Below are positions 45,057 to 63,380 of a stretch of 64,000 nucleotides of DNA, piece by piece. The position numbers and the translations under genes are program-made. Source of the DNA: Candidatus Latescibacterota bacterium (GTDB lineage: Bacteria > Latescibacterota > UBA2968 > GCA-2709665). Each line of letters begins with the position of its first letter. Positions within the stretch are counted from its first letter, which is position 1. The notes below the pieces were generated by a model. The model was not told where the DNA came from. It saw only the letters and a program-made list of their open reading frames with translations, and ran no database searches. Location of the stretch: the NCBI GenBank assembly GCA_965203805.1, contig OZ241917.1, positions 1,312,001-1,376,000 of the forward strand, given 5' to 3'.

Positions 45057-46152
45057 CAGATTTACCTCCTGAAATAAGCTGCACAGAGACGTTTCGGATA
45101 ACTCGTCATTTGACCCGTCGAATTTCTTGGGCGGCCCTATATGTAAGTTCCTCGTCTGTCCTTTTCAATGCAATCGGCAACCGTTGAGCCACGCGTGGAT
45201 TGGACCAATTAAGTTGGGCAGCAGAAAACACGTCTTGTGCAACGACAGACATGTCTATATCGCTTCGGTGCCCTACCAACACAATCGGTTGAGCAGTCCC
45301 TTGAGACAATGTAGCCGCACCTGTATTGGCTAGTACAACAGTTTTCTCGTCAATCTTGAAAGCGGTACCCTCCAAAACATTGGTAATTTGGCCAGGGCTC
45401 CTTAACCACATGCGTATCCTCTTGACGCTTCGTTTATGGAAATCCACGGTATCGACGTGCCCCTTTTCATCCAGATATCCGCACTTGATGAGTTCATCCT
45501 TGGCTTCGGCAATGCTTTCCATCTCGCGACCACATTCACGCCCATCGCGCAGGACCAGAATTGACTGAAGGGGCGCAAAATGCAACCGGTTCGCTTGCTG
45601 GAAGAGTTCAAGTATGGCATCACGCAATACAACATTGTTGATAGTTTCGTGTTTCGTGTCCGTCTTGTTCTGAACAAGCGTGTTTAGGCTGAAGGACGGT
45701 TGCATCGATTCTCTCCGACAAATGAGGAGAGAAAGGGCGAAATATCGCCTATCCCATCCAACGTCAATGGCAAGTTGCGCATCGTAATGCAGTGGGTCTG
45801 ACAGACCCCACGGAACACAGTCCATCTGCTGCAGTACATCCAAAGCGCACAGTTCAACGAAGGAATTCCAATTCCTGACATCTCTCGACCCATTGCTAGG
45901 ACACGATGATTTGGAACGTAGATGCCTAGGCAATCTTTGAAAGCGATCCATTAGTGTCCTAGATGTGACGCGTTTTACTCGCCAGCCCATCAACTCAAAT
46001 GAGACCTTAAAATAGGTGGCTGGATCTATATTCTCAAAAACAAAGACCACAATTCCCTTCCTAGATTCTTGTCTTAGCCGTAGGAGAGCAGCATCAACAT
46101 TTCGGTACGACTGCAGGTCGGAAGTAATTCGCTTTTTTGTCAAACGACCTAG

Positions 46153-47795
46153 CCCGGATTATTCATAAAAATAGGTAGTTTCCTTGTACAAGAGGTTGTT
46201 TATCCCTATATTTAGGGGTGACAGAAAAAGACAACCTAAAGAAAGGAAACTACCGTGGAACAAGATAAACAAACGGTGATGAGATTTGCAAGCATTTCGG
46301 GTAAGAAGGTGGAAGCGGACTTTGACGGCGGGGTGACGACCAGCGACGGCGGTATGATGCTTTTGCGGAAGGTGGAGTCGCGCATCGGCATCGTGGACCG
46401 GATTGTCGGTGCGCTTTGTGACGGACGTCACCAAAGCTATGTCGCGCATACCTATCGGGACCTTATCAGACAACGGGTGTTCCAGATCGCCTGCGGCTAC
46501 GAGGATGCCAACGACAGCAACGCGCTTCGATCGGACCCTGCGCTGAAAGCCGCGTGCGAGCGCCTGCCGATTACGGGTCAGGATCTGGCGTCTCAGCCGA
46601 CGTTATCGCGTCTGGAGAACAGCGCGAACCGCAGGGACCTCTACCGTGTCGGTGAGGCGTTGGTGGCGGCGTTCATCGCCTCTTATGACACGCCACCAAA
46701 GAAAATCGTGTTGGACATCGACGACACGGATGACCCGACACACGGAGCTCAGCAACTGTCGTTGTTTCACGGTTATTTTGATACGTATTGCTACATGCCG
46801 TTGCATCTGTATGAAGGGCAATCGGGCAAACTCATCACGGCGCTGTTGCGCCCGGGACGCAGAATGGATGGACGCACGATGGCGTCGATCTTAAGACGTG
46901 TCCTGGATCGGATTTTGGTGGCGTGGCCGAAGGTTCGGATTCTCCTGCGTGGTGACGGGCACTTCTCCGCGCCGGAAGTGCACGAACTATGTCAGGAATA
47001 TCGCATCGATTTCATTCTGGGACAGATGGTTAACAAGAAGCTCAAAGCCCTCGGCCAACCCCTGATGGAAAAAGCCGCCGCACAGGCCCAGACGTGCGAA
47101 GGTCCCGTGCGCCTCTTCACATGCTTCGATTATCAGGCCAAGTCCTGGGAGCGACCGTTGCGGATCATCTACAAGGCGGAAGTGACCCACAACAAAGCCA
47201 ACCCTCGCTTTGTCGTCACCAATATCCGCAACCGAACTCCCAAGTTCCTCTACGAAAAGATCTACTGCGCACGCGGTCGCACCGAAGGCTTTATCAAAAA
47301 CCACAAGACCTATCTGCGTTCTGACAGAACCTCCTGCCATCGGTTTTCAGCCAACCAGTTCCGGCTCTTCTTGCACAGCGCCGCCTACGTGCTCCTGCAC
47401 GCCATCAAAGAATCCGGAATGAAAGGCACCACATGGGTCAAAGCCAACTTCGATACGATCCAACTGCGGATCCTGAAAATCGGTGCCCGCGTTCGAGAAC
47501 AGACCACCATGATCCGATTCCACTTCCCCACATCGTATCCCAACAAAACCCTCGTACGCACCATCCTTTACAATCTCGATACCGCGTGATGATCAGACTC
47601 CGTACCACTCAACACAATCCAAATCCAAGCAACACCAAGGCATCACTGTGACCAGAATCAACCCCCGTCTCCTTTGAAACCCATCCCGTGAACCCCAAAG
47701 ACCCAATACCCACACATCCTACACAATGACGCTGGCCGAAAACACTCTTTACGACCTTTCTCGCTCAATTCTACACATTTCATGAATTATTCAGG
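46153..47795 (+). mobile_element. IS1380 family insertion sequence
   Basis: Terminal inverted repeats cccggattattcataaaa / tttcatgaattattcagg; CTAG duplicated at 46149-46152 and 47796-47799. Confidence 0.93.
46255..47589 (+). CDS. IS1380 family DDE transposase (intact)
   Basis: FDGG..TSDGG, GYEDAND, LASQPTLSRLEN, LDIDDTDD, LRGDGHF and YCARG. Confidence 0.93.
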   Translation: MEQDKQTVMRFASISGKKVEADFDGGVTTSDGGMMLLRKVESRIGIVDRIVGALCDGRHQSYVAHTYRDLIRQRVFQIACGYEDANDSNALRSDPALKAACERLPITGQDLASQPTLSRLENSANRRDLYRVGEALVAAFIASYDTPPKKIVLDIDDTDDPTHGAQQLSLFHGYFDTYCYMPLHLYEGQSGKLITALLRPGRRMDGRTMASILRRVLDRILVAWPKVRILLRGDGHFSAPEVHELCQEYRIDFILGQMVNKKLKALGQPLMEKAAAQAQTCEGPVRLFTCFDYQAKSWERPLRIIYKAEVTHNKANPRFVVTNIRNRTPKFLYEKIYCARGRTEGFIKNHKTYLRSDRTSCHRFSANQFRLFLHSAAYVLLHAIKESGMKGTTWVKANFDTIQLRILKIGARVREQTTMIRFHFPTSYPNKTLVRTILYNLDTA

Positions 47796-49026
47796 CTAGA
47801 CAATGATTGAGGTCATTCGCAAAGCGGCGTGCTGCAACCTGATCAACACTATCGGGCACGCGAATGCGAATTTCTCGGGACATGGCAGGTGGAACACTCA
47901 AGCATCCAACCTCATTCAAGAGCGGGAGCCGATCACGATAATGACTTCGGTATGAACCAAGGGTACTCTCGTTTGCACATAAGTGTTCTGCTCTTCCAAA
48001 TTTCAGTCTTGGAGGTTTCAAGGTTAGAAGGTGCTCTTGTGGTTGCCAAGATGATTTGGTGACGGAAAGATTTCTCACACCCAGCGGATAGTCACCCAGG
48101 TCTCGCCAGAAGTTGTCAATCAATGCACGTCGATCGGCAGGAGAGAATTTATCCGCTCGCCTCAATGCAGGTGGAATGCCTTCGTTCGTCAGTCGCAGGC
48201 GAAGTCGGTTTGCCACGACGAAACGAGGTCGGCTAATCCCAGGAAACGAGACTCTTGCAACACAATCGTGCGGTTTGACATTCAATTGAGGATAGGTCTG
48301 TTTGTCGTACTCATAGAGTGATCCATAGTCGACCCCATTGACTCGTAGCGACCCGGTCGTCGCACAAGTTGCATCAGAAAAGGAGTCGAAATAACATTTC
48401 ACCTTGTTGTGCCCCAAATCATAGAGTAACGTGGCTTTCTGGCCTGCCTGACGGCGGCTGAGGGCTTCGAAGTGTTCGGGTTTCCATCTTCTTCCTTCAA
48501 AAAAATCAGCCACAGTAGAAGCCGAAAAAAAGGCAGTGGAGACGTCAACCGTCAGGCCAACTCCGGTTTCGTCGATAGAAACACTGGAAATCTCAAATCG
48601 CCTGTATGCCGCCACACCATCGGTTTCTACAAAAGGATCTGGAGAGTAAAAGATCCGGGGGCTATCCAATGTCCAAAGTTCCGCTCGACGCCTGCGGATC
48701 TCAATCAAGAGACAACGCTCCATCAATTGAGTTAGCAAATCAGTATCTTGACGCCTGGAAAAACGAAGTCGCTTGATGACGCCGCTGTCGTGAATTTCTA
48801 ACCGACAATCGTCGTCTTCAATAACACACCGTTGGAAGGGTCTTGTTCCAACGACTAAAAGGCCCTCTGGACATGGGACAGAAGCCAGTCCCTTTCTCCT
48901 GAGCAAATGACACGCTCGTTGCTTTAATTCAGGAGAGATGTGTTGGCCGACTAGCGTAGCCAGACGAGTATCGACGCGCAACTTGGGTCCAAAGTTCACG
49001 ATACGAATATTGGTCTCAATCATTGT

Positions 49027-49929
49027 CTATTCCTTTGGGCAAATCTCCTGAAAAGAGCATTGCTTGCAGATAAGTGGTTGACCACATGGTGTAAAGGCAT
49101 CGGCAACTGCTTGTTTTCCATATCGATGCATCGCCTCCATTCTCTCTATATCCTGAATGATGCGACCTTCGGCTCGCATCACTTCCCTTTCAGACACTCG
49201 AAATGTAACAATAACGCTGTCCGAAAGATGGACGCGATAGAGATCTATTCTGTTTGGCTGGCAGTCAAACTCCTTGATGGCACCAAGAGCATAGGATAAG
49301 AGCTGCAGGCTATCATCGCCACCCTCTGATTTACCGATTTTCCAATCAACTACTGCGACGCGGTCCCCATTCGAATAGGCCAAGTCGAGCTTGCCACGCA
49401 GAGAGAAGTGACCGCTCTTGACACTAACTGACTTTTCAATCAGAGCATTGGAATCGCAGGATCCATCGCGAAAATTGGCAAACGTTGGATTCTCAATGAA
49501 GTTTCGTAACGCTGAGAGCATGCGAGTCTGAGACTCCCTGAACAGAGATTCAGCGTCGTCAATATTGTAGTAAAACTCCGAAAGCAGAGCGGGAGGAAAA
49601 CGATCTCTTGAGCGTGGATCCGTCGGTCGATATTTGGATGAATAGGCGTAATCCTTCTGGAAGATCTGACGTGCCCAATTCAAGACTCGATCGACTTCCC
49701 ATACATCTTTCTCTTTTAGTTTATTCAGATAGGTTCGGATTACCAGGTGCACGATATCACCGGCCCGAAGATGTCGATTGGTGAGGGATTTGAGAAAATG
49801 CAGGCGCTCCTTTAGGGGCTCGGCTCTTGCCGTGTTTCTATTTGCACCGTAATACTGGTAATAGTACGCCCTCGGACATCGTTCCAAGAGACTTCGCCGA
49901 GAATACGACCACAACATGCAAGACCTCAA
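49027..49929 (-). CDS. Cas4-like PD-(D/E)XK nuclease
   Basis: WSYSR...CPR, G..VH, GKLDL, VVDWK.G, QL..Y and C-terminal C..C.....C (AddB/Cas4-type 1+3 Cys pattern). Confidence 0.85.
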   Translation of the reverse strand: MRSCMLWSYSRRSLLERCPRAYYYQYYGANRNTARAEPLKERLHFLKSLTNRHLRAGDIVHLVIRTYLNKLKEKDVWEVDRVLNWARQIFQKDYAYSSKYRPTDPRSRDRFPPALLSEFYYNIDDAESLFRESQTRMLSALRNFIENPTFANFRDGSCDSNALIEKSVSVKSGHFSLRGKLDLAYSNGDRVAVVDWKIGKSEGGDDSLQLLSYALGAIKEFDCQPNRIDLYRVHLSDSVIVTFRVSEREVMRAEGRIIQDIERMEAMHRYGKQAVADAFTPCGQPLICKQCSFQEICPKE

Positions 49930-50270
49930 CTTCGTAATCGTCTCAAGTCTTGAGTAAGTTTACCCCACTCTTCATCCGAAAGATCAAGGTTATGTGCCTG
50001 TTGTAAAAACTGTTGTGCAGCGGTGCTATTGCCCACCATTTCGCGGACCGGCGTGGGCATTTTGCCTGTCATCGAAAGCAAATAATCGGATGGAGAAGCG
50101 AGGGCTTCACATATCTTAACGACGGTATCAGCAGACGGTGGAGGTAAGCGGTTATTCTCCAACTTACTAATGTAAGAAAAGTCCACTCCGACACGGGCCG
50201 CCAAGTCTCTCTGGGTGACACTCTTGGATCTTCGCAATTCTCTTAAAGCCTGCCCAAACATCGCTGACAT
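49926..50270 (-). CDS. XRE family HTH transcriptional regulator
   Basis: FGQALRELR...TQRDLA..VGV...YISKLEN; 4-nt overlap with the nuclease gene. Confidence 0.9.
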   Translation of the reverse strand: MSAMFGQALRELRRSKSVTQRDLAARVGVDFSYISKLENNRLPPPSADTVVKICEALASPSDYLLSMTGKMPTPVREMVGNSTAAQQFLQQAHNLDLSDEEWGKLTQDLRRLRS

Positions 50271-50678
50271 GATTCGCTCCAATGAGGTACTCGACGATAG
50301 GATCTAATCCGTCTGAACCTAATATACCGAAAGTTGAGTTGATAGTCAACGCAAATTTTGAAGGCTAAAAAATCGAAGCCCAGAGTCAGTGCTAACCCCC
50401 CCAAAAAACCATAGACTTGCAAATTCCAGTTGTCTATTCCAGAGTTCAGCATGGAGATGGAATCTGCAGTCTTGTCCGTCATCATACGGTATGCACAGAG
50501 GATGAATAGGCATTCATCCGTTCACTCAACTGGCCCTCCATCGCCGTCATCCCTTGAGCCGTCAGTCCATATAGAGCATAGACCAAGCGATCTATCTCTG
50601 CGTTTGGTTCATTGTCAATCACAAAACAGAGCAATATGTGGTCAATTATGCGGCCGCAGGCGAGTTTCAGCCTTTTCT

Positions 50679-51683
50679 CTAAAGGAAATTCTCGCCCGCA
50701 TGATCAGAGAACGAATCGGCGTCGCGGATGTATTGCATGACCGTAGCTGGATTCGTATGTCGGGTGACCGCCATGATTTTGTCCAGCCGGGCACGATGTA
50801 CTGCTGCGCTAGTGACGAATCCCGCGCGTAACGAATGACCGGCAACTTCCTTTGGGTTGAGTCCAATCCTTGAGGCATAGTGCTTGACAATCCGCGGAAT
50901 GTCTGAGTGATGTAGCGGTCTCCCCTGCACGTGACCACCTCGCTTCATTGATTGAAACAACGGTCCTGACTTGATCCGAGATGCTCGTAGCCACACCTGA
51001 AGCCGGTGAATGGGTCGGATTACACTTCCGTCTAGAATTGCTATTCTTTGCCCGCGCCCCTGTTGATCCGTTTTGGACCGGCGGATTGTGAGGAACATGC
51101 GTCGACTCGACCCGTTTTCGGGCTCGAGGAACTCGACATCGTCAACCATCAAGTCGCAAATCTCCGATCGGCGGAGTGCACCAGCAAATCCAACCGAAAT
51201 AATCGCAGCGTCTCGACGCCCAATAGTTGTATCAGGGCATTGGGAGAGCATAGCCTGTATCTGGTATTCTCTCAACGCTTCTACTCGCCGACATGCCGTA
51301 CCCTTAAGCCGAGCCATGCCCTTGAGTGTCGCGCGAACGATAGGATGGTTTGTTGGCGATGACTTTCCTGCTTCGGTAAACTTCCTGTTGACTGCGCTCT
51401 TGTAAAGGGTCACTGTGCCCATTGATAACACCGTCCCGCTTCGCGCGCTCGGATTTGTTGCCAAATGTATGAGAAACCCTGCCACTTGGTCAGGCGAGGC
51501 AGACAACGGCTCGACAATTTCAACTTCGTCGCAATATTCAATGAATCTGGACCACCCTTTTTCGTACGCGATGCGTGTATTCCTCGCCAACGAAGAGAAA
51601 AGGACATCGGTGTGAAAGCTCTGTCCAATCATGCCCGAGGGATTCAACGAAAACTCCTCCATTAAGGTCCGCCAGTGTCTCAC
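50679..51683 (-). CDS. Tyrosine recombinase/integrase (Cre-like)
   Basis: Full catalytic set LRRSE, SKTDQ, GHSLRAG, TRH and MQY; the real start may be the ATG at 51662. Confidence 0.9.
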   Translation of the reverse strand: MRHWRTLMEEFSLNPSGMIGQSFHTDVLFSSLARNTRIAYEKGWSRFIEYCDEVEIVEPLSASPDQVAGFLIHLATNPSARSGTVLSMGTVTLYKSAVNRKFTEAGKSSPTNHPIVRATLKGMARLKGTACRRVEALREYQIQAMLSQCPDTTIGRRDAAIISVGFAGALRRSEICDLMVDDVEFLEPENGSSRRMFLTIRRSKTDQQGRGQRIAILDGSVIRPIHRLQVWLRASRIKSGPLFQSMKRGGHVQGRPLHHSDIPRIVKHYASRIGLNPKEVAGHSLRAGFVTSAAVHRARLDKIMAVTRHTNPATVMQYIRDADSFSDHAGENFL

Positions 51684-51716
51684 AACTTGGAGATGTGACC
51701 GGATCGAACAATGTGG

Positions 51717-52489
51717 TATAGCAATTTACTACGGAATTAAAACGGGCTATAACGCAGCATTTATCATTGATAACGACACTAAGAACGCGCTGGTCGCTGA
51801 AGATCCAAACTCAGCTGCCTTAATCAAGCCTGTGCTCCGCGGACGGGACATAAAACGCTATCGGGCGAAGTGGGCGAATCTCTGGCTGATAGCAACTTTT
51901 CCTGCTCTGACACTCGACATCGATGATTTTCCAGCAGTGAAGAAGCATTTGCTATCTTTCGGCAAAGCGCGATTAGAACAATCGGGTAGAACCCTTCCGA
52001 ACGGCACGAAATCCAGGAAATATACTATGCACGCTTGGTATGAATTACAGGATACTTGCGCTTACCACGCAGAGTTTAGCAAGGAGAAGTTGATCTGGAT
52101 GGACCTAACAGAACGAGGCCGGTTTGCCTATGATATAGAGTGCCTATTCTGCGTAAACACGGCATTTATAATGTCAGGTCCATCAATCAAATATCTATGC
52201 GCCCTGCTTAATTCAAACTTGGTAACTTGGTTTATGAGGAACACGGCCCTGAATTCCGGAATGGGCGTAACTCGATGGATTAATGCTTCCTGTAGAACCA
52301 ATTCCAATCCCACAACTTACTGGTGCAGAGCAAGTTCCGTTTACGCTCTTAATGGACCGAATCCTTTCAGCCAAAACTGTAGGTCTTGATACTGACACCA
52401 GCGATCTGGAAGTGGAGATAGACCGGATGGTCTATGATCTCTACGGCCTTTCTGAGAAAGAAATCGCCGCGGTAGAGGACAAATCATAA
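51717..52489 (+). pseudogene. Silent alternative TaqI-C-like specificity domain of the type IIG-like methyltransferase (inverted; frameshift near 52290)
   Basis: IAIYYGIKTGYNAAFIIDNDTK...KPVLRGRDIKRY is homologous to the C-terminus of 52640-56266; no methyltransferase motifs; the tail continues in ORF 52283-52489. Confidence 0.8.
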
Positions 52490-52639: not shown

Positions 52640-55600
52640 TCAATGGCGGCTACGTCGGCATTTGGATCGGCCTCTTTTGGCTTCCAATATGCGGTCGACC
52701 AAGCAGACGAAAGTGTTTTGCTTCGGGACCGAAATTCTAGGTATGGGCAGGTGTTCAACAGCGAATTTTTTCCATTGCAAAAGCCCCATTCCCGTTGTCA
52801 ATGCGTTGTTTTTCATCAACCAAGTAATAAGAGTGCTGTTCAGAATCGCGCAAAGGTATTTCAGGGATTCACCCGTTAAGAAAAACCCTTTGTCGTTGCA
52901 ATATATCTGCACCTTGGAGTAGGCAAATCTGCCACTATTTGACATGTCCATCCAGAAGAGCTTTTGCTTAGAGAATTCCTCATGGTAAGCGCAATTACGG
53001 AGATTGTACGGTGTACTGCCTTTGTCTTGCCGCTCTTCCAGTTGGGGAAAGAACTCGTCCAAATGGTTCTTGATGGCTGGGTATTCTTCAATATCGACAG
53101 CGGGAACATTGCCGTATCCATTGTGCGTGTCAATTAGCCAAAGGCCTGCCCAAAGGACACTGTAACGCTGAATATCTCTGCCGCGCAGCAGCGGCTTTAT
53201 TATTTCTGCCGAGCGTGAATCTTCGGTTATCAATGCTTCCTTAGTGTCGTTATCAATGACAAAGGCGTCATTGTAACCAGTAAGAACCCCTCGGTAAATT
53301 GCTATATCCCAATCTTTCAACGGCGTACCTCTAGCCTGCATCTTGTCCATAACGCTTTGTTCAGTGCGTGACAGGATGCTCCATGGCTTTTCGCCGCTCA
53401 GACGCGTTTGACCCCAAAACCCTTCTGGAGGCGGAAAATCACCGGTAGGCAGTTTGTCAATGTCGACAGCGCGGCAGACATTGTTGCCGTTACCCTCGCG
53501 GAGAATCAGAACACTGGTGTCAACGATTGTGTTTACAAAGACGTCCTTACCCATCTCCAAAAGGCGAAGGGGCGTGTGTCGCTCCGAGAAATACCGACGA
53601 AGGGCCTTGCCGTATTCAGCCTTCAACCAACTGTTGGAGGTGATGTAAGCCAACAACCCCTGGGTAGGCTTCAGTAGTTGACAACCCTTCTCGTAGAAAA
53701 GCTGGTAAACATCCCCAGTACGGACAAAGGTTTCAAAGCCGGTTTTCTTGTATCGCTTTCCCAACTCTCCACCGTTTTTTTGCAATTGAATGTACGGCGG
53801 ATTCCCAATAACGACATTGAAGCCATCTTCGATTCCGAACATATACTTGGTGTCAAACCAATCCGCCTTCGCATTCTGATCATAGGACTTCCACCGGGCG
53901 ATTTTTCGAGCATCTTCAAAGCTTAAATCAAACTCTCCCTTTCGTATCTTGAACTTTTTCTGTTCTTCAATGCGCAGTTGTTCGCGGTGTTCTGCATTGG
54001 GTATTTGTGCGATTCTTCGTTCAATCTCCCGTTGCTCTCTCCCGACCCAATTTGCTCGTAGGGCTTCTAATTCACGTTCCAATTGATCTAGCAGATCTTT
54101 TTCCTGGCGGATATACTGGAGTTTTTTCGGGCGATTGTTGGCAAGAAAATACCTCGCGCGAATCGCCTCGATTTGCATTCGGAATTGCTGAACTTTGTTG
54201 TCTTGAAGAAGCGAGTGTACTTCGTAAAGCTTAAGGCCGACGAGCGTGTCTGCGGCAACAAATCGGGTCTCCAAATTCGGCAGCGGTTTGATCCCTAAGT
54301 TTTTTTTCTTCTCATCTGGATCCTGTTCAATTGCCAGTGAAATAAAAAAGCGCAATTTAGCAATCTGACAGGCTACAGGCTGAATGTCCACGCCAAAAAT
54401 GCTGTTCTGGATGAGGTAGAGCTTGCGCCCGAAGTCTCCGGAATACCGTTGAAAGGTATCGCTAATCTCTAGCAGTTGGGCGTCGCGTTCATGTTGGTTT
54501 ATATTCTCAAACGCCGCGTCCGCCTCTGCTCGCGCGCGTTCCCTTTGAAGTGCTTTCCAGCGCAGGTTGCGGGGGTCAAGCCTTCTAAGGGCCAGGGTCA
54601 ACTTGTGCAGCATGCCCATCGGAAACGCGCCGGAACCGACTGCTGGGTCCAGCACTTTCATCTTGGCAATGGCGTGCACAATGGCCTCCGCCTCGACTTC
54701 CTCAAAGAGTTCATTGGCATCATCAAATGCGTCTTCATAATCCAGCAGGTAGCGTAACCGCTCTTCCCAGAATTCCCCATTGCCGTCCGCTGGAAGAACA
54801 TCCTTCTTCAGCGTCGCCAAGACTACTTCATCCACCATATAGTCAACTACCGCGCGGGGCGTGTAGTACGAGCCGGTCCGCCTGCGCGCAGTGTCTTGAG
54901 TTTCAGGGTTGTACGCAGCGAGAAGGTTCTCGAAAACTTTGCCTAGCAATTCCGGATCTAGGGCGACTTCCTGCTCTATAGGTGTATTTTCCTCTACTGT
55001 GAACTTGTAATTGTTGAACAGCGTGATAAGCCCTTCTCCACCAAAAAACAGGTGATTTGGGATGGAATATTCGCGACGCTGAGCAGGGTTGTCGGTAAAG
55101 CAGTCGAGGCGCGCGCCTCCCGCCCCGACGGCTTCAAAGTCGTCCAGGCAGTCAAACAGACCGCCGTTGATAAAGGGCGTTTGCGCAAACAGTTCGAGCA
55201 ATCCATCCGGGTCGGTCATTTCCTTTCTGTATCGGTACACTGAAGGATTGCGGTGGTCAGCGCGATTCTGCCTGCTAAAACGACGTTTATCAATTTCGGT
55301 GTTGAGAGTAGCAAAAAACAAGTTCTGCAATATGGCGCGGTAGTAGGAGTCGCCTGTTTGGAGGTCGAAGTCTTCCAGTAGTTCGCTGACCTTCTGCTCA
55401 ATGAACAAGCCCTCGGCGATCAGCTTCTTTTCCTTAATGAACCAGACGAACATTAAGCGGGTAATGAGGCGGATCGTATGCTCTTCGGGTTCCAGAGTCT
55501 TAGCTTCGTTCGCAGGAAACTTCGCGTCGGAGACGGCTCTTTCAAACCAATCGAAGAGTTCGCCGTAGAACCGCCGATTGAGTTCCTCCGTATCCAATTT

Positions 55601-56266
55601 GTCCAACCAGGCGGCCAGCAGGCCGTCGAAATTGTTCGGCTTGTTGTGGAGATCCATCCACGTAGTGCACTCGGTCAGCGACAACTCAGCCAATATGTCC
55701 AGATGGGCGCGGTGGGGATTCTTCGGTGCAATCTCACGTATCAAAGACACTTTGCCCAATACATCGCGCGCAGGGTCGCGCTTGTGCTCTCGGCGGTGAA
55801 CAAAGGCAAGAGTCAGCAGATTGGATGTTGTGCGGAAGAGAACGACGGAGGGTTGGCTCAGGCGTTTGTTGATCTCACGGGTGAATCGCGCGTACTCCCC
55901 TCGAGTGCAGGTCGATTCCTTGAGTTCAACGGAGAAGAAGACGAAGCTTTGCTGTTGTCCCTTGTCAAAGGTAGCGGAATCAAATCCGATCGTAGGATGG
56001 GTGCTGGCGCCGACCTCGTCGCTTGTCACCTGAAAAATCAACTTCACGGACTCCGTCAGTTTGCGAAACTCCTCTTCGGACTTTGTGTTTTGATTTGGGG
56101 CCGGGAATTCACGAATAAAGTCGTCCACACTTCCTGGTAATTCCTCGGTGCGCTCGCTTTGATAGCCCAGCACTTCGAACAGGCGTTTCGCTGCCACCTC
56201 AAAGTCGTCATCATGGATTCCGTTTAGCGCCGAACAAATATCTTCTCTGATGTCTGGCTGTGTCAT
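52640..56266 (-). CDS. Eco57I/type IIG-like N6-adenine DNA methyltransferase with C-terminal specificity domain (frameshift near 52676; natural tail extends to about 52522)
   Basis: PFINGGLF, LLGKVFENLL, TGSYYTP, LDPAVGSGAF and VIGNPPY. Confidence 0.9.
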   Translation of the reverse strand: MTQPDIREDICSALNGIHDDDFEVAAKRLFEVLGYQSERTEELPGSVDDFIREFPAPNQNTKSEEEFRKLTESVKLIFQVTSDEVGASTHPTIGFDSATFDKGQQQSFVFFSVELKESTCTRGEYARFTREINKRLSQPSVVLFRTTSNLLTLAFVHRREHKRDPARDVLGKVSLIREIAPKNPHRAHLDILAELSLTECTTWMDLHNKPNNFDGLLAAWLDKLDTEELNRRFYGELFDWFERAVSDAKFPANEAKTLEPEEHTIRLITRLMFVWFIKEKKLIAEGLFIEQKVSELLEDFDLQTGDSYYRAILQNLFFATLNTEIDKRRFSRQNRADHRNPSVYRYRKEMTDPDGLLELFAQTPFINGGLFDCLDDFEAVGAGGARLDCFTDNPAQRREYSIPNHLFFGGEGLITLFNNYKFTVEENTPIEQEVALDPELLGKVFENLLAAYNPETQDTARRRTGSYYTPRAVVDYMVDEVVLATLKKDVLPADGNGEFWEERLRYLLDYEDAFDDANELFEEVEAEAIVHAIAKMKVLDPAVGSGAFPMGMLHKLTLALRRLDPRNLRWKALQRERARAEADAAFENINQHERDAQLLEISDTFQRYSGDFGRKLYLIQNSIFGVDIQPVACQIAKLRFFISLAIEQDPDEKKKNLGIKPLPNLETRFVAADTLVGLKLYEVHSLLQDNKVQQFRMQIEAIRARYFLANNRPKKLQYIRQEKDLLDQLERELEALRANWVGREQREIERRIAQIPNAEHREQLRIEEQKKFKIRKGEFDLSFEDARKIARWKSYDQNAKADWFDTKYMFGIEDGFNVVIGNPPYIQLQKNGGELGKRYKKTGFETFVRTGDVYQLFYEKGCQLLKPTQGLLAYITSNSWLKAEYGKALRRYFSERHTPLRLLEMGKDVFVNTIVDTSVLILREGNGNNVCRAVDIDKLPTGDFPPPEGFWGQTRLSGEKPWSILSRTEQSVMDKMQARGTPLKDWDIAIYRGVLTGYNDAFVIDNDTKEALITEDSRSAEIIKPLLRGRDIQRYSVLWAGLWLIDTHNGYGNVPAVDIEEYPAIKNHLDEFFPQLEERQDKGSTPYNLRNCAYHEEFSKQKLFWMDMSNSGRFAYSKVQIYCNDKGFFLTGESLKYLCAILNSTLITWLMKNNALTTGMGLLQWKKFAVEHLPIPRISVPKQNTFVCLVDRILEAKRGRSKCRRSRH

Positions 56267-56986
56267 CGTCGATCTTTCTGTAAAACTCTTACCTGTTGGG
56301 GACGAGAGCGATTATGGTGGAACCGAGATTCGAGTGGCCTTAGTCACATGTGTACATAGCCACTTTCTCCCGCATTGTTGGCTCCTACAAAGATGCCCAG
56401 CACTTGTCTACGGTATCCAAGCGCCTTTCTAGCCTGACTAATTCATGAAACTGAACGGAACAGTGTTTTTGGAAGCAAAAAGTGATCTATAGAAGGGGAA
56501 ATAGTCAAATGACGTGTTGGTGACGGGATAATGCGTAATTTTGGGTGGTCTGTCAGCATCGAGGGGTGTCGAGTTCTTTGATTTGTGGATGGAAAGGACA
56601 GACGGATGCCTTGGTCTTACTTTTGGCGATGAGAAAGGGACGGCGGGGCCTGCGTGAAGCGTCTGCGTTATGGAACTGCCTTTGCCAAATTGCATAGGAT
56701 GGTGCCATAGAGGTGTTTCAAGGGAAATGAGGTTGGCAAATGGAGTTTGATTTTGGTTTTGAGTTCGGACACTCTCCCGGCGACTTTGAGGATGCGATTC
56801 TGAATGGTATTAAACTGCGCGTGCGTCCATTGGGTGGTCCGGAGTCCTTTTTCGGTAAGGGTGTGCATCAGGACATAAGCGGCACTATGCAGGAAGAGAC
56901 GGAAGTGATTGGCTTCGAAGGTGTGGCAGGAGGTACGATCGGAATGGAGGAAGGTTTTGTGATTCTTGATGAAGTTTTCCATCCTG

Positions 56987-57007
56987 CCTGCCTGGCCGGC
57001 AGACAGG
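56987..57007. repeat. CCTG...CAGG mini-palindrome insertion (21 bp), in frame inside the transposase
   Basis: cctgcctggccggcagacagg adds LSAGQAG, which is absent from the other IS1380 transposase. Confidence 0.85.
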
Positions 57008-57843
57008 CCGCGCGCACAATAGACGGTTTTGTAGAGGAATGAGGGCTGGCTACTCTTCAGGTTGGTGACGACAAAGCGTGTATTGGCTTGTCCGGAAGCG
57101 GTGATTTCAGCTTTGTAGATGATGCGTCTTGGCACGGCCCACGAATCTGCCTGGTAAGCGAAACTGGTAAATCGCTGCACAGGCTGTCCGGTCTCCCGAT
57201 ACTGTGCCTTTGCCTGCTCGATCAGCGCGTGTCCCCGTTGTGCAAGCCTGGCATTGCCCGTCTGTCCCAGCACGAAATACACCTCTTGCTCGTCGCAGAA
57301 GTCGTGGACCTCGGGACAGGAAAAATGGCCGTCGCCACGCAAAAAGAGTCGCACGTGCGGCCACGCCTCGCGAAGGCGTTTCACCAGTCGCTTGAGAACG
57401 GTGACAATCTGTTTGCCGGTAGGACGGGCGCCCGGACGCAAAAGCGTCGTGATCAGTCTTCCTGTCTGCCCTTCATAGATATGCAAGGGACAGTAACAGC
57501 GTTCACCATAATAGCCATTGAACATCGCCAACTGTTGACAGCCGTAAACCTCGTCGTCGGTGTCATCGATATCCAGAACGACCGCGTTGGGAGGCCGCTT
57601 GTAGGACGCGATAAACCCGTCCACAAGGGCCTCGGCAATACGATATAAGTCCCGGCGACGAATGCCGTTTTCCAATCGACTCATCGTGGGTTGGCTGGCC
57701 AACGGCCCCCCTGATATCGGCAACCGACCACAGGCCGCCTTGAACGCGGGGTCAAAGCGCAGCAAATCGCAATCGTTCGCATCTTCATACGCGCACGCGA
57801 TCTGAAACACACGCTGGCTGATCAGATCCGACATCGTGTGATC

Positions 57844-57876
57844 CCTGCCTGCGCCAAGTGCAGCGCGGCAGGCAGG
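57844..57876. repeat. CCTG...CAGG mini-palindrome (33 bp) at the transposase deletion junction
   Basis: cctgcctgcgccaagtgcagcgcggcaggcagg. Confidence 0.8.
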
Positions 57877-58355
57877 CTGGTGAGCACACCGCCGTCGAAG
57901 ACGGCTTCCACCTGCTTGCCAGAAACACTTGCGAACGGAACTGTGAGTTGACTATCTTGACCTTCCACGGTAGTTTCCTCCTGTTTCATTGTGTTATGGT
58001 TATTCGCCTAACCATAATATAATACAATGACTTGGGTAAGGAAACTACCTTTTTTGTGAATAATTGGGGCTAGATCTCCCTCAACTTCGTTGTTCTACCA
58101 TCAGAGTAACCGTCAATTGGAGTGGAAATTTCCAAATCACTGTAAATAAGCATATTAATCCAAAATAACGAAAGCTGCAATCCAAGAGTTACGACTTCTG
58201 TCAAATTACCATCAGATTACAATGATTCCCAAAACCGCATACATTTCGCGAGTCTGCCTCCATGAACTAATGCGCCTGCGAAGGTACCATCGCAGGGTTC
58301 TGTCACTACACCGCTGATTTGGACCCACAGATGACATACCCTCTGGCGTGATGCG

Positions 58356-59975
58356 TCAATTTGCGAACATTTCTGGCTCCAGGAGGTCGCGCGACCAACG
58401 GCGCAGGCGGCTGATTGCCTTTACCTTGATTTGGCGGATGCGTTCGCGTGTGAGACTCATCATCACGCCGATTTCCTCCAATGTATGGCTGTCGCTGCCA
58501 TTCAGCCCAAAATGCAGGCCGATTACTTCCGCCTCGCGTGGTGGGAGGCGCTCAAGCGCTTCCTCAATCAATAACAGCGCCGATTCGCGCATAACATCGG
58601 CATCTGGCGCGGCGATTTTTTCATCGGCCAAAATTTCGAGCAGACTCCGTTTATCCTCGGTGAAGGGTTCGTGGAGGGCATATACACTACCAGCACTCAA
58701 GATGGTTTCAATGATCTTTTCTGCTTGAAACCCTAGTTTCGCAGCTATTTCTTCCACAACTTCCTGGGACAGTCGTTCAAGTTCCGTGGTTCTAAATCCA
58801 GGGGTGTGCCCGTTAGACGGCTCGTGATGTAATACTCTTGATATGTCCTTTAGCAAGGCGACCCTGTTGAGTGGCAGACGTACAACCCGCACATGCTCGT
58901 CGACTGATTTCAATATCGCCTGGCGAATCCACCAAACTGCATACGTGATGAATTTATGACCCAAAGATCCATCAAAGCGGCCAGCCGCTTCTATCAAACC
59001 TATGTTACCAGCGCCAATCAAATCAGAAAGCGGCAGACCACGATTCTGATATCGTTTCGCTTCGTTAATGACGAAGCGCAAATTGGCGCAGATCATCTCG
59101 TCACGCGCTTCCATGTCACCATATTTGATTCGGCCAGCCAGTTCTACTTCGCGTTCTCTGGAAAGGGGTGTGGAATCAGCGACATCGTCGAAATAAAGCC
59201 GCAGGTTATTCTCCTCTCCTTCAGGAAACCTGGCCTCAGGCTCCACCTGCTCAAGCCAGTCCTTTGTATACCGGTAGAATGTCTGGCCGCGTTCTGTGGT
59301 GTCCATTTTAGATAGCCAAGCGTTCAGCAAGCCGTCACAGTTGCACGACCTAAGATTGGCGTTAAGCCATCTGGTGCACTCGAGAAGCGACAGTTCAGTC
59401 AGGACATCCAGATCGCCACGGCGTGGATTGTCCGTCTGAATTTCTCTACTCAACGAGGTAACTCGTTCCAGCACATCAAGAGTGATATCAAGCTTGTTAG
59501 GCCGGCGACTGATAACGGCGATGGTCAAGAGTGCTCCGGATCGGAAAAAAACCACCACTGGAACTTTCACTCGCTTGTCGATCTCCCTGGTGAATTCGTC
59601 ATATATACCTCGGGGATAGTCACCTCCCTTAAGTTCCACCGCGAAGAAAAGAATGCTTTGCTGCCGACCCTCTTCAATCGAAGAAGCCCGATCCCGTAGC
59701 GTTTTTGGATTCTCAGAAGCGATCTCATCGTTTGTCAGTTGAAAAACAATCCTCACAGACTGGACATGCTTGCGAAATGCCCGCTCATTCCTGGTGTTTG
59801 ATTTCCGTGCCGGAAACTCGTCGATAAAGCCATCCACATCGCCGGAAAGATCCAGGGTACGGTCACTCCGATAGCCGAGGACTGCGAGCAGGTCCTTAGC
59901 TGCCTCAATCAAATCGTTGTTTGATGAAGCTTCCAGAGAGGCTTTGATTCTTCCTCGGATATCTGACATGCTCAC
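58356..59975 (-). CDS. Fusion protein: R-M methyltransferase N-terminal domain paralog plus sigma-70 family sigma factor (regions 1.2-4)
   Basis: The first ~250 aa align by eye to the N-terminus of 52640-56266; the remainder has LRLYF, ANLRFV..AKRY, KFITYAVWWIRQAI and TLEEIG...LTRERIRQI. Confidence 0.88.
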   Translation of the reverse strand: MSMSDIRGRIKASLEASSNNDLIEAAKDLLAVLGYRSDRTLDLSGDVDGFIDEFPARKSNTRNERAFRKHVQSVRIVFQLTNDEIASENPKTLRDRASSIEEGRQQSILFFAVELKGGDYPRGIYDEFTREIDKRVKVPVVVFFRSGALLTIAVISRRPNKLDITLDVLERVTSLSREIQTDNPRRGDLDVLTELSLLECTRWLNANLRSCNCDGLLNAWLSKMDTTERGQTFYRYTKDWLEQVEPEARFPEGEENNLRLYFDDVADSTPLSREREVELAGRIKYGDMEARDEMICANLRFVINEAKRYQNRGLPLSDLIGAGNIGLIEAAGRFDGSLGHKFITYAVWWIRQAILKSVDEHVRVVRLPLNRVALLKDISRVLHHEPSNGHTPGFRTTELERLSQEVVEEIAAKLGFQAEKIIETILSAGSVYALHEPFTEDKRSLLEILADEKIAAPDADVMRESALLLIEEALERLPPREAEVIGLHFGLNGSDSHTLEEIGVMMSLTRERIRQIKVKAISRLRRWSRDLLEPEMFAN

Positions 59976-62900
59976 GCCTCAGCAACAATCAGCCAAGTGA
60001 TTAGCTCAAAGTCAGAGTTACTCGGTTTCGCAGATTTAATTGGGAGTCTGGATTCGCGTTGACCTTGAATACCAAGCTCTCTTATCTGCGTTGCCGTGTT
60101 CGCGCCACCGATTTCAGCAATGACCGCGTTCAACAGCTTGTCGTAACTTGCCATGTCTTTCCCGTTCTGTGTTTCTCGATCAAACTGATCGCACAAAGCT
60201 TGAATGGGTTCGGTCTTTCCTATGGCCACCGACTCGAACAACTCGAGCACTTGGCGCGCGTTGGCGCAACCGTACCTAATTTGTCCAGTGCTGCGAATGT
60301 ACGCCAGATAGTATGGATGAATCGGACTCGCCATTTTTTCCCGTCTGTCTTTAGTTGCGTTGCGCCGCCGCAGGAAAAATATCACTCCCCGTGCCGGCGA
60401 ATTGTCTTCGCCGTGGGTTACCGCATACGCACCGTTCGGCGTTGTTTCCAATTCAGTCCTATTTCGTTCAAGATAGCGTAATAACTGTGAGAAGAAATAA
60501 TCCAGCGTGAAATCACTGATTACGACGCCATCCGTGACTTGGTCCAGATCGAGGACTTCCTCGCGTAGTTGCTGAAGTTGCCGGTCTCGAAAATTGAGCT
60601 CCCTCTGAACCCCGTCATATGTGTCTTCATCCAGGGGATCATCAGCCCCGCTTGCCGCCGCGTCGGCAAGCGCCATGCGTGCCTGCACCCGGCATTGCAG
60701 GCGCAGATAGACTTCCATATCGTCCGTAGGCCAGTAATTTATCATCCTTACCGCTTTGCTGCGGCTTCCAATCCTGTCGATGCGCCCGAAGCGCTGGATG
60801 ATTCGAATCGGATTCCAGTGGATATCGTAGTTCAGGACGGTATCGCAATCCTGCAGGTTTTGACCTTCCGAGATGCAGTCGGTCGCAATCAGCAAGTCAA
60901 TCTCACCGTTGATAGCGCCATTACGACCACGTGCCCTAGGCGAAAAATTGGTTAGAATGGCGTTGAAGTTGCGAGCGCCAAACTTCGCATGCGTCACGTC
61001 CCCCGCGACCATGGCCATATTCAAGCCTAATCCTTCCACTAAGCTACCTAAGTTTTCGTAGAGGTATTCCGCCGTATCCTTGAAGGTCGTAAAAATGAGA
61101 ATTTTGCGATTCAACCTGCCGTCCTTGTCCGTCGTTGGACTATTCACCCTGTTTCGAATGTGCTCTTTGATTTTTCTCAGCTTTCCGTCCCGGTCGGGTG
61201 AGATCGTCCGGACTTTCTGCCATGCCGCGTCAAGTGTTTCCTTATCTGTTAGTAGATCAGCCCTCCAGCGTGGCAGGTCGAGTTCACGCAGATGATAGGG
61301 ATTGCGTGCTCGATTAACGAGAAACTCCTCATCGTCATCATCATCGTCCGGAAGGATATCGGCTTGAGATGACACCGCAGCCCGGGTTTCCAGGAAACTG
61401 TCGATTTTTGCGACCAAATCGTCAATCTTCCTCACGGTCCGCCCAAGTGTTTCGGATAATGAATGCGCGGAGCTTTCCAATCGCTTGAGAAAGTTCGTCC
61501 GAATCATGCCAATGAGAAATCGCTCACGATCCTCCTGGTTGAATCTAAGGGTCCGTTTTTCATCCGCCAGTCGTCGTTTTGCCTCTTCACTGGTAACGTA
61601 TCTGGAAGGCCTGTAGACAGAAAGGGCGAATTCTTCTATCTGTTCAGCGAGACCCTTATACGAGAGTCTACCAGTCAGGTCGGTACGCGGATGGTGGTTT
61701 TCGGGTTTTCGTTGTATTGGGAATTCACCAATTCGATCCATTTCGTCGGCGTAGAATGTCTCGATCTGGCGTCGCGACCGGGCAATCGAAATTCCGCCTA
61801 ACAATCCGAAGAAATCTGCGCCTAGTTGTTCCAGCAGTTTTGATTTGTCCTTCTTCCCAGTCTGAGCAGTGGTGTTCTCCCATGACTTAAATTCCCTTTG
61901 GGCTTGCTTCAGCATCACATCAATATTGCCGATTCCCAAGCTCTCGCGAAATACATCCTGGCGTCCTTCCGTCATCAGGTAAATCTGATTACGAAGATCA
62001 ATTAGTGATGTGTTAACAGGGGTCGCCGAAAGCATTAGCACCTTTGTCTGCGTACCCTCCTTTATCACCTCTTCCAGCAAACGGGAATAGCGACTGTGTC
62101 GTATATTGCCGTATTCATCTTTTCGAGGCGTTGAGTCATTCCTGAAATTATGAGACTCGTCGATAACAACCATATCAAAATTCCGCCAATTGAAGTTCGC
62201 CAGTTCGATTTGCCCGGATCTTCCGCTAATTCGGGTCAGATCTGTATGCGAGAGCAACGTATATCCGAAGCGGTCGTCGTCGAAGGGATTGTTCTCATGT
62301 GCGTTATAGGCCGGATACAAAGCCCAATTATCGTGCAGCTTTTTGGGACACAATACCAGCACACGTTCATTTCTCAGCTCAAAGTATTTGATAACGGCAA
62401 GCGCAGTATATGTCTTTCCCAAACCCACGCTATCAGCCAGAATGCAACCGTTGTGTCTAAGCAAGCGTGTAATGACGCTCTTTGCGCCGTCCTTCTGAAA
62501 GTTGTACAACGCATTCCAGATAGCCGTATCGTACAGGTGCGTGTCTTTAATGTTCTGATCTCTAGCTTCCCTCGCATCGATATCGTCCCGGAATAACTGA
62601 TAAAGCGTCTTGAAATAGATCAGTTCCGGTGAATGGTCCTTGCCGATCCGGTTGAGAGCATCGAGAACATCCGTTTTTGCATTGCGGGTTAGTTTCGTGT
62701 CTGTCCACAGATCGTCAAACCACGCGCCCAATTCGGCACGAATTACCGAATCAGAGGCTGCGAGGTTGATTTCGACGTTTGCCCCCTCCTCGCAGCCAAG
62801 TCCCCTCTTGGTAAAGTTGGAACTCCCGACCACCGCCGCTCCTCCATCGGACGATTCAGTTAAATGCATCTTGCCGTGAAGAAAGTTGGATATTCCAATG

Positions 62901-63259
62901 GATCGAATACGGACACCCCTTCTTCGCACCCATTCCTCGCACCTTCGCGCCAGGTATTTCTGTTGGAGAACATGATGCGGCGAGAGGCCGTCCTCCGTCA
63001 GGTCGTAAGATTTCGGCTCTTTCTCTCCCGGGTCCAATTCACCCACGGATGCCGGATCGCCGAACAGAAAGCGGACATCTTTTAGGCCTCGAAGTTCGGA
63101 TTCCAAAGCCTCATATCCGTAAATCGTGAAATATGCTGAAACGAGGCGGTACACGTCGGCATCGGACAGGTGCGTGCGCAGAAAATCGGCAACGCTGTGG
63201 CGCCGATTGTCAAGAATATGCTCGTACGCGGAGAATTCAGCTTTTTTCGTATCGGTCAT
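59972..63259 (-). CDS. PLD-nuclease plus SNF2-type helicase (putative restriction subunit)
   Basis: FLHGK...GSSNFT (PLD), ADSVGLGKT, IDESHNFR, LSATP, SEGQNLQ and QRFGRIDRIG. Confidence 0.9.
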   Translation of the reverse strand: MTDTKKAEFSAYEHILDNRRHSVADFLRTHLSDADVYRLVSAYFTIYGYEALESELRGLKDVRFLFGDPASVGELDPGEKEPKSYDLTEDGLSPHHVLQQKYLARRCEEWVRRRGVRIRSIGISNFLHGKMHLTESSDGGAAVVGSSNFTKRGLGCEEGANVEINLAASDSVIRAELGAWFDDLWTDTKLTRNAKTDVLDALNRIGKDHSPELIYFKTLYQLFRDDIDAREARDQNIKDTHLYDTAIWNALYNFQKDGAKSVITRLLRHNGCILADSVGLGKTYTALAVIKYFELRNERVLVLCPKKLHDNWALYPAYNAHENNPFDDDRFGYTLLSHTDLTRISGRSGQIELANFNWRNFDMVVIDESHNFRNDSTPRKDEYGNIRHSRYSRLLEEVIKEGTQTKVLMLSATPVNTSLIDLRNQIYLMTEGRQDVFRESLGIGNIDVMLKQAQREFKSWENTTAQTGKKDKSKLLEQLGADFFGLLGGISIARSRRQIETFYADEMDRIGEFPIQRKPENHHPRTDLTGRLSYKGLAEQIEEFALSVYRPSRYVTSEEAKRRLADEKRTLRFNQEDRERFLIGMIRTNFLKRLESSAHSLSETLGRTVRKIDDLVAKIDSFLETRAAVSSQADILPDDDDDDEEFLVNRARNPYHLRELDLPRWRADLLTDKETLDAAWQKVRTISPDRDGKLRKIKEHIRNRVNSPTTDKDGRLNRKILIFTTFKDTAEYLYENLGSLVEGLGLNMAMVAGDVTHAKFGARNFNAILTNFSPRARGRNGAINGEIDLLIATDCISEGQNLQDCDTVLNYDIHWNPIRIIQRFGRIDRIGSRSKAVRMINYWPTDDMEVYLRLQCRVQARMALADAAASGADDPLDEDTYDGVQRELNFRDRQLQQLREEVLDLDQVTDGVVISDFTLDYFFSQLLRYLERNRTELETTPNGAYAVTHGEDNSPARGVIFFLRRRNATKDRREKMASPIHPYYLAYIRSTGQIRYGCANARQVLELFESVAIGKTEPIQALCDQFDRETQNGKDMASYDKLLNAVIAEIGGANTATQIRELGIQGQRESRLPIKSAKPSNSDFELITWLIVAEA

Positions 63260-63380
63260 CTACGCTCCAGAAAATCTGTAATCGCGGGCTTCACGCGAGG
63301 TATATTAGAATCTTACAGTAAGACGTCTACGCAAAATGCGTGCATGTTTATTGGTGCAGTTTGCTCACGTTCACGCGTTG

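Follow-up and report, generated by a model that had tools for sequence, protein, structure and literature searches.

Why should a sigma factor be encoded within what resembles a restriction-modification locus, fused to a domain of the methyltransferase encoded nearby? This question is raised by a 64,000-nucleotide stretch of the genome of a Candidatus Latescibacterota bacterium (GenBank assembly GCA_965203805.1, contig OZ241917.1, positions 1,312,001 to 1,376,000; hereafter the window, with coordinates counted from its first letter). An earlier note, made from the DNA letters alone, had described at 58356-59975 an open reading frame (ORF) that continues without a stop from a copy of the N-terminal domain of the methyltransferase at 52640-56266 into a sigma-70 factor. 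This ORF is borne out and lies on the minus strand: a single open frame runs from 59975 to 58356, encoding 539 amino acids (aa) from a GTG codon, and the junction between the two parts (..ARFPEGEENNLRLYFDDV..) is read through in frame, with no stop. The gene encodes a real, conserved two-module protein, namely, an adaptor of about 250 aa followed by a complete, group-2-like sigma-70 factor; its database annotation names RpoD/SigA only. The 4-nucleotide (nt) overlap (GTGA) with the stop codon of the upstream helicase gene, also reported in the note, is true of the longest ORF only. An alternative ATG, located 2 bases past the helicase stop, is preceded at 7 nt by GAGG, and the database entry P0005 (537 aa) begins there. 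With its better placed GAGG, this ATG, at 59969, is the likelier start, for which the overlap does not hold; with either start, the two genes abut.

The N-terminal module (hereafter N-domain) is a paralog of the methyltransferase N-terminus: residues 1-260 of the fusion and 1-267 of the methyltransferase (P0002) share 46% identity (122/268; BLASTP, E 5e-66), which confirms the paralogy claimed in the note, and each motif pair quoted there is present in the alignment. A phmmer search with residues 1-255 against 1.84 billion representatives yielded 764 representative clusters at E ≤ 1e-3. In all of the best 150 of these 764 clusters, the N-domain forms the protein N-terminus, and it is joined to a methyltransferase in 109 and to a sigma factor in 6, the remaining 35 being short or other proteins. 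Among the latter, P0202 (686 aa) combines the N-domain with TPR repeats, a third kind of cargo. AlphaFold2 (AF2) modeling of the N-domain was confident (predicted local distance difference test, pLDDT, 90.5; 81 sequences), and the model had no match in the Protein Data Bank (PDB) at E ≤ 1e-3 (Foldseek). A profile search of PDB sequences started from the N-domain produced matches in the methyltransferase part only, an ESM Atlas search with the domain gave no usable match, and tblastn against a plasmid collection gave none. Matches to DUF4391 (PF14335) fall below the cut-off of 29.9 bits (17.8 bits for the fusion, P0001, and 20.3 for the methyltransferase of a related locus, L027), and profile-profile comparison with this family (hhalign) was weak (probability 6.6%, E 0.0056, 95 columns). 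A candidate PD-(D/E)xK nuclease motif (D83/E84 ... E114-x-K116) was rejected because K116 varies among orthologs; the motif is also not conserved in the wider family, and the confident model has no PDB fold match. Likewise, no N-terminal nuclease domain of known fold, as in a Type IIG enzyme, was recognized in the N-domain by Foldseek against the PDB and a motif check.

The second module is a sigma factor lacking region 1.1, the place of which is occupied by the N-domain. Residues 258-530 align, from region 1.2 to region 4.2, with SigA, RpoD, and RpoS chains of solved holoenzymes (phmmer; best match SigA, E 1.9e-45). In Pfam, regions 2 (PF04542, 52.9 bits vs cut-off 24) and 4 (PF04545, 54.4 bits vs 24.1) of the window protein exceed their cut-offs, whereas regions 1.2 (PF00140, 21.3 bits vs 22) and 3 (PF04539, 20.0 bits vs 25.3) fall slightly short and yet lie inside the phmmer alignment, both families being recorded in many orthologs; of the four regions listed in the note, 2 and 4.2 are borne out, and 1.2 and 3 are probable. 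The YA-WWIRQ (YAVWWIRQ in the fusion) and LTRERIRQI motifs align with the same motifs of SigA/RpoD (phmmer), and residues Y345, W349, R351, and Q352 as well as T509, R510, E511, R512, R514, and Q515 show at least 90% conservation, up to invariance, among 49 orthologs (alignment A1). We take YA.WWIRQ to be the residues that melt the -10 element and TRERIRQ to be those that read the -35 element. The best NCBIfam match of the fusion is RpoS (TIGR02394, 215.2 bits vs cut-off 378.7), with RpoD (NF004208) at 193.3 bits vs 555, so that both equivalog cut-offs are missed. Compared with stand-alone sigma genes of its own genome, the sigma half shows 51-52% identity. The full-length model of the fusion (pLDDT 69.6) retrieves only sigma factors from the PDB.

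The earlier note suggested that the fusion is old and maintained, and proposed searching other genomes for junction-spanning proteins, checking the junction in sequencing reads, and calculating dN/dS (the ratio of nonsynonymous to synonymous substitution rates) for each half. Junction-spanning proteins were found. In a search of 5.8 billion proteins, for which counts rest on the 120 matches listed, the window's own entry included, 49 matches span at least 96% of the query (43-100% identity, 521-570 aa); besides the window's own, there are at least 48 full-length cluster representatives with 43-75% identity, and the junction (..FPEGEE..LR.YF..) is conserved in the alignment of the 49 orthologs. 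A much longer protein, P0394 (1018 aa), belongs to the same 90% cluster as one fusion protein (P0049); read-through joining it to the helicase gene may account for its length. When one genome per species was scanned, 11 loci were obtained, of which 10 carry the fusion and the eleventh an ordinary sigma gene; the fusion ORF is intact in seven of the 10 loci, split in two (L011 and L017), and cut by a contig end in one. Logan contigs cross 58384-60295 in a run that is possibly the source sample (X1, 0 differences) and in a run from another study (X4, 18 differences); in a third run (X3), no listed contig lies over 58951-59211, and nothing is concluded from that. At 58915-58955, all four runs show a rise in depth and many contig ends. 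The stretch is the most conserved part of sigma region 2, common to other sigma genes of the communities, and because contigs span it, it is no assembly joint. Nei-Gojobori counts for eight intact orthologs (28 pairs) gave dN/dS below 0.5 in all pairs; in the nine pairs with dS below 0.7, the N half has values of 0.17-0.50 and the sigma half values of 0.19-0.36. These ratios, all below 1, show purifying selection on each half. The age and maintenance of the fusion are therefore supported by at least 48 other full-length representatives, the presence of the cassette at 10 other loci, and the dN/dS values of both halves.

The genes around the fusion form a cassette with the order helicase, N-domain-sigma fusion, and N-domain-methyltransferase. 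The helicase is upstream of the fusion in all 10 loci and the methyltransferase is downstream in nine, the tenth contig ending inside the fusion gene; in the window, the fusion and methyltransferase genes are 2.1 kb apart. The best PADLOC match of the helicase (P0003) is C3a139 ‘HKD+Snf2’ (E 5e-108); its residues H128, K130, G145, and S146 are conserved (alignment A5), and orthologs with 84-89% identity are found upstream of the fusion in L009, L010, L017, and L018. The methyltransferase matches PADLOC REase_MTase_IIG (E 2.7e-145) over its methyltransferase and specificity parts, and its translation contains the DPAVGSGAF and NPPY motifs. In the related locus L027, the system has a two-gene form in which the start of the N-domain-methyltransferase gene overlaps the helicase stop, with nothing between; the sigma gene of the window occupies this same position, in agreement with the note, which had placed it where a methyltransferase partner would be expected. 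In other relatives, the gene immediately following an SNF2 helicase gene (39% identity of the helicase to P0003 over the full length) encodes a stand-alone DUF4391 protein of 252 aa, and a methylase comes next. Gene order here says more than the profile comparisons: given these triads and the order in L027, carriers of the N-domain are encoded right after a helicase of this kind. In our reading, helicase plus N-domain-methyltransferase is a common two-gene, ATP-dependent system resembling restriction-modification, and the cassette is its three-gene variant.

We modeled the complex of the fusion N-domain with helicase residues 1-240 and 600-1095 using custom alignments. Three runs gave ipSAE values of 0.74, 0.74, and 0.73, compared to 0.00 for the best of three controls; in calibration, 58 of 80 solved complexes and 2 of 110 mismatched pairs attained this ipSAE mark. 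Between the runs, at least 52% of contacts are in common, with a partner pLDDT of at least 77. The predicted interface involves residues 38-43, 53-57, 78-81, 104-109, 134-138, and 165 of the N-domain and, on the helicase side, residues 1055-1077 of the C-terminal tail, a stretch that is conserved in the helicase family and directly precedes its invariant DFEL.TWL end. The adaptor domain is thus predicted to clip onto the conserved helicase tail, and the docking that the earlier note had entertained is favored at the level of this complex model.

The explanation that we consider best overall is an adaptor-sigma protein that is the middle component of a restriction-like cassette, docked on the helicase and preferably acting as a controller; our judgment of this account is evenly balanced between acceptance and doubt, and the controller role within it is favored tentatively. 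The methyltransferase would use its own N-domain copy to bind the helicase tail likewise, and the sigma factor and the methyltransferase would be alternative or parallel partners of the restriction motor. With the methyltransferase bound likewise, the sigma factor would be a second client of the motor, which could hold it. Such a sigma factor could switch between a helicase-bound and an RNA polymerase-bound state and control the expression of either the nuclease-helicase operon or the methyltransferase, whereas the helicase tail, as an anti-sigma-like tether, would titrate the sigma factor and feed back on its availability. The outcome would be a delay and a balance of nuclease-helicase vs methyltransferase expression, as produced by the C proteins of Type II systems, which are encoded with the nuclease gene and time nuclease expression against that of the methylase. 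The likeness to C proteins is hypothetical and functional only: both would be transcription factors timing nuclease vs methylase expression, but C proteins are small helix-turn-helix (HTH) activator/repressors, unlike a sigma factor with a docking domain.

Several observations weigh against this account. The homology of the N-domain to DUF4391 is weak by both measures given above, and broken copies occur at some loci, with the fusion split in L011 and L017 and reduced to a remnant in one related genome (G001). The predicted interface residues are conserved no better than the rest of the N-domain (0.499 vs 0.509, permutation p 0.57) and are only slightly more alike between the paralogs (14/24 vs 102/226). 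The docking was performed with three chains and custom alignments, whereas the calibration was based on single-chain pairs and other alignments, so that the calibration counts hold only roughly; moreover, of the two N-domain copies, the model covers that of the fusion. The sigma factor is dispensable for the basic system because close relatives (8 of 31 genomes) have two-gene systems without it. Finally, its -35 and melting residues look housekeeping-like, which argues against a private promoter, and a consensus scan revealed no promoter specific to the fusion sigma, the nine sites found being at chance level (9.7 expected).

Five other explanations were considered. A chimeric assembly, for which nothing was found, is refuted, the junction being spanned by contigs of two studies and present at 10 independent loci and in at least 48 other clusters. 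The protein could also be an ordinary alternative sigma factor with an inert methyltransferase leftover from a rearrangement and no functional tie to restriction, as would befit its annotation as RpoD/SigA only and a rearrangement-prone locus, where insertion sequence (IS) elements and split genes occur, as does a helicase fragment in L013. We consider this highly improbable given that constraint on the N half equals that on the sigma half, that the N half is full length in 49 orthologs, and that the gene adjoins the helicase in 10 of 10 loci. A signal relay, in which the helicase holds the sigma factor until the motor meets foreign DNA and the freed sigma factor turns on a wider response, would make use of the tether of the docking model and is consistent with the abortive-infection AIPR/AbiU genes that, in L012, L013, and L014, lie within the cassette or next to it. 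These genes are found in three of the 10 loci only, however, and no regulon or promoter motif was found, so that we regard the relay as unlikely.

Another possibility is that the sigma factor is a targeting subunit, a second DNA-recognition partner that takes the helicase-nuclease to RNA polymerase or promoter DNA, or polymerase to the motor. Region 1.1 of sigma-70 masks DNA binding in free sigma, and it is this region that the N-domain replaces; furthermore, the methyltransferase with the same domain is a sequence-recognition subunit (TaqI_C), and the sigma gene takes the place of the methyltransferase after the helicase. However, DNA binding by the sigma factor is putative, host promoters would be targets as well, and no mechanism of self/non-self discrimination is apparent, which leaves this reading similarly unlikely. 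The sigma copy might, instead, be an integrated decoy, that is, bait for phage proteins that seize the host sigma factor, such that capture would trip the PLD nuclease regardless of methylation. The sigma half retains normal sigma surfaces and the identity to same-genome stand-alone sigma factors noted above, as expected of a mimic; it is tied to the nuclease-helicase in the docking model; the cassette is located in a defense island with an Argonaute system; and a sigma-family protein is a named part of the MZA defense system. Still, no phage partner is known, the sequence gives nothing to tell a decoy from a working sigma factor, and the dN/dS values of the sigma half (0.19-0.36) carry no sign of an arms race. 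We consider the decoy quite unlikely. Against these alternatives, we retain the helicase-docked controller as the preferred explanation.

The history of the N-domain is consistent with an early duplication. A quick tree covering 156 N-domains places 15 of the 16 from fusions in a single group, which also takes in two short fragments and lies nested within those of methyltransferases, and the methyltransferase N-domains of the same loci form a separate group (nine rows, SH-aLRT 99), with the exception of that from L013, which sits beside the fusion group. The latter grouping is a hint that the two N-domain genes have recombined. The larger tree and a careful one of 53 rows agree on the fusion and methyltransferase groups, and from the separation of these groups, the duplication is older than the spread of the cassette. 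P0237, a 467-aa N-domain-sigma protein with another junction, is a singleton on a long branch, and its sigma half is nearer to free sigma factors than to the fusion family. The quick tree paired P0237 with a methyltransferase (SH-aLRT 99), as for a second, independent fusion event, but the careful tree drops this pairing, and by the approximately unbiased (AU) test, a single clade of all fusions is not rejected (p 0.212), so two fusion origins are not claimed. A metagenome scan for the context of P0237 was dominated by ordinary sigma genes, and none of its 80 loci contained an N-domain or helicase. Among 31 related genomes, fusion-type matches were detected in seven, namely, five of 15 in the genus of the window (G000 included) and two of 12 in another genus of the same order. 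Eight others have methyltransferase-type matches only, and one of these (G001) keeps an 87-aa fusion remnant. The sigma gene is an optional, patchily distributed addition. Loci L009-L018 carry two phylum labels, and the genome matches fall within one order only; no conclusion was drawn on cross-phylum transfer.

The helicase-methyltransferase pair is of a known kind, and what is new is the sigma factor joined to its N-domain as a third gene. Two-gene HKD-SNF2 and Eco57I/Cj0031-like systems (PADLOC C3a139), which appear among programmed-inversion loci in the available part of PMC9881135, consist of the same helicase and methyltransferase families in the same order, with the N-domain on the methyltransferase and with spare inverted specificity cassettes and a recombinase, as at the window locus. 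The difference is the third gene between, in which a second N-domain copy is joined to a sigma factor. The SNF2 helicase-DUF4391-methylase triads share the homologous helicase and a small protein or domain encoded directly after it, but the DUF4391 protein is free-standing, the methylase is of the N6_N4 type, and the likeness of the N-domain to DUF4391 is weak. MzaA (NCBIfam NF041931, PADLOC PDLC02203) also carries a sigma-70 module at the C-terminus of a larger defense-system protein, and because it is named in both databases, a sigma factor in defense is not without precedent. Nevertheless, the fusion scores 194.5 bits vs a cut-off of 800 with the MzaA model, residues 288-529 matching model positions 474-706 in the sigma part only, and the two proteins differ in their unrelated N-terminal parts and partner genes; among the scanned cassette neighbors, the only trace of MZA partners is a weak MzaE match on the AbiU-like gene of L014. 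No description of the role of MzaA turned up in the portions of the literature available to the search.

In BREX-related Type-2 systems, as far as the available part of PMC12839542 describes them, an HKD nuclease-SNF2 helicase fusion is paired with a BrxX-like N6-methyltransferase, along with DUF499 and DUF3780; the latter two were not called by Pfam among the scanned window ORFs, and no sigma fusion is mentioned in that part of the paper. The locus also differs from Class 1 DISARM: the matches found to DrmD and DrmMI are partial (E 1e-34 and 2e-17), and, of the set expected for this class (DrmA, DrmB, and DrmC with DrmD and DrmMI), no other partner appeared among the ORFs scanned in 43-64 kb. 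The statement of the earlier note that no fusion of a restriction-modification domain with sigma-70 had been described fits the literature search, in which the available portions of PMC12839542, PMC9881135, and PMC12707154, among other sources, described neither a fusion joining the N-domain to a sigma factor nor a restriction system with a sigma subunit (material in the supplementary tables of PMC12839542 could be relevant here); it requires the amendment that a sigma factor in defense, MzaA, has already been named. If the tether is real, it would directly link a DNA-surveillance motor to RNA polymerase and would assign a role, that of a helicase-tail adaptor, to the very common unannotated methyltransferase N-terminal domain found in the 764 clusters. 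It may also throw light on the sigma-like protein of the MZA system; were the decoy explanation true, guard/decoy immunity would operate inside a restriction-modification machine, and perhaps MzaA would follow the same logic. Small repressor or activator regulators of restriction-modification are known, but we know of no such system with its own sigma factor or a docked sigma subunit.

Features of the cassette and its surroundings in the window (strand “.”, not oriented)
Feature	Coordinates	Strand	Details
N-domain-sigma fusion gene	58356..59975	-	539 aa from GTG at 59975; ATG at 59969 likelier start, 537 aa
N-domain, residues 1-255	59211..59975	-	Paralog of methyltransferase N-terminus, weakly DUF4391-like, predicted adaptor for helicase tail
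Sigma-70 module, residues 256-539	58356..59210	-	Regions 1.2, 2, 3, 4.2 (Pfam, NCBIfam, phmmer)
PLD(HKD)-SNF2 helicase/nuclease P0003, first cassette gene	59972..63259	-	1095 aa; Pfam PLDc_2, SNF2-rel_dom, ResIII, Helicase_C
N-domain + Eco57I-type N6-adenine methyltransferase + TaqI_C specificity domain, P0002	52640..56266	-	1208 aa; Pfam Eco57I, N6_Mtase, TaqI_C
Native spacer downstream of sigma gene, to IS insertion point	58070..58355	-	End matches L009, L010, L018 spacers (..GGGAGATCT..)
IS element between sigma and methyltransferase genes	56429..58069	.	1641 bp; CTAG on each side; DDE_Tnp_1_4, E 2e-132
Conserved leader upstream of methyltransferase start	56267..56428	-	162 bp, 82% mean column identity in window, L009, L010, L018
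Partial second TaqI_C specificity cassette, inverted	51631..52389	+	50% identical to P0002 residues 988-1165, E 3e-59; Pfam TaqI_C
Tyrosine recombinase adjoining spare specificity cassette	50679..51683	-	Pfam Phage_integrase, E 8e-16

Within the IS element that separates the sigma and methyltransferase genes, the transposase ORF (56668-57834, minus strand, 388 aa) lacks the first ~57 profile positions, which are found in another frame upstream. In run X4, one contig passes directly from 56428 to 58070, leaving out 1641 bp (4 letters fit either side), and thus represents an IS-free locus; the element itself is covered several times as deeply as its flanks. Counterparts of the methyltransferase leader, non-coding and ~165 nt long, are present in L009 (11639-11807), L010 (8320-8489), and L018 (12375-12544). 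A predicted pairing in the leader would cover the region of the methyltransferase start codon; the fold has no covariation support and no Rfam family, the only Rfam matches being miRNA models far below threshold, on the IS end. In L011, L012, L014, and L016, a TGTATAAT box directly precedes the methyltransferase start. This conserved upstream region of the methyltransferase's own fits separate control. A TAATAT(AC) box is located ~45 nt before the helicase start (window ~63300-63310) in all five of the window, L009, L010, L017, and L018 loci, with no common -35 box seen beside it in these five.

The spare specificity cassette and the adjoining recombinase probably provide switchable specificity, and L016 and L017 contain inverted partial specificity copies of a similar kind. 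Inversion is deduced from the architecture because no sharp inverted repeats were found: none is perfect, and the only pair is 78 nt long with a 71% match. Beyond the recombinase, genes for a Cas4-like nuclease (49027-49929) and an HTH protein (49926-50282) adjoin the pieces (47791-49023 and 45106-46143) of an Argonaute (pAgo class II) gene that is split by a second IS copy, the transposase of which (46255-47589, 444 aa) is whole. The Cas4-like nuclease and Argonaute near the cassette mark the region as a defense island. The AIPR/AbiU-like gene lies beside the cassette in L012 (4951-6621) and between the helicase and sigma genes in L013 (8285-9958) and L014 (8278-9969). In the region 11829-16569 of L013, a C-terminal fragment of the helicase follows the sigma gene.

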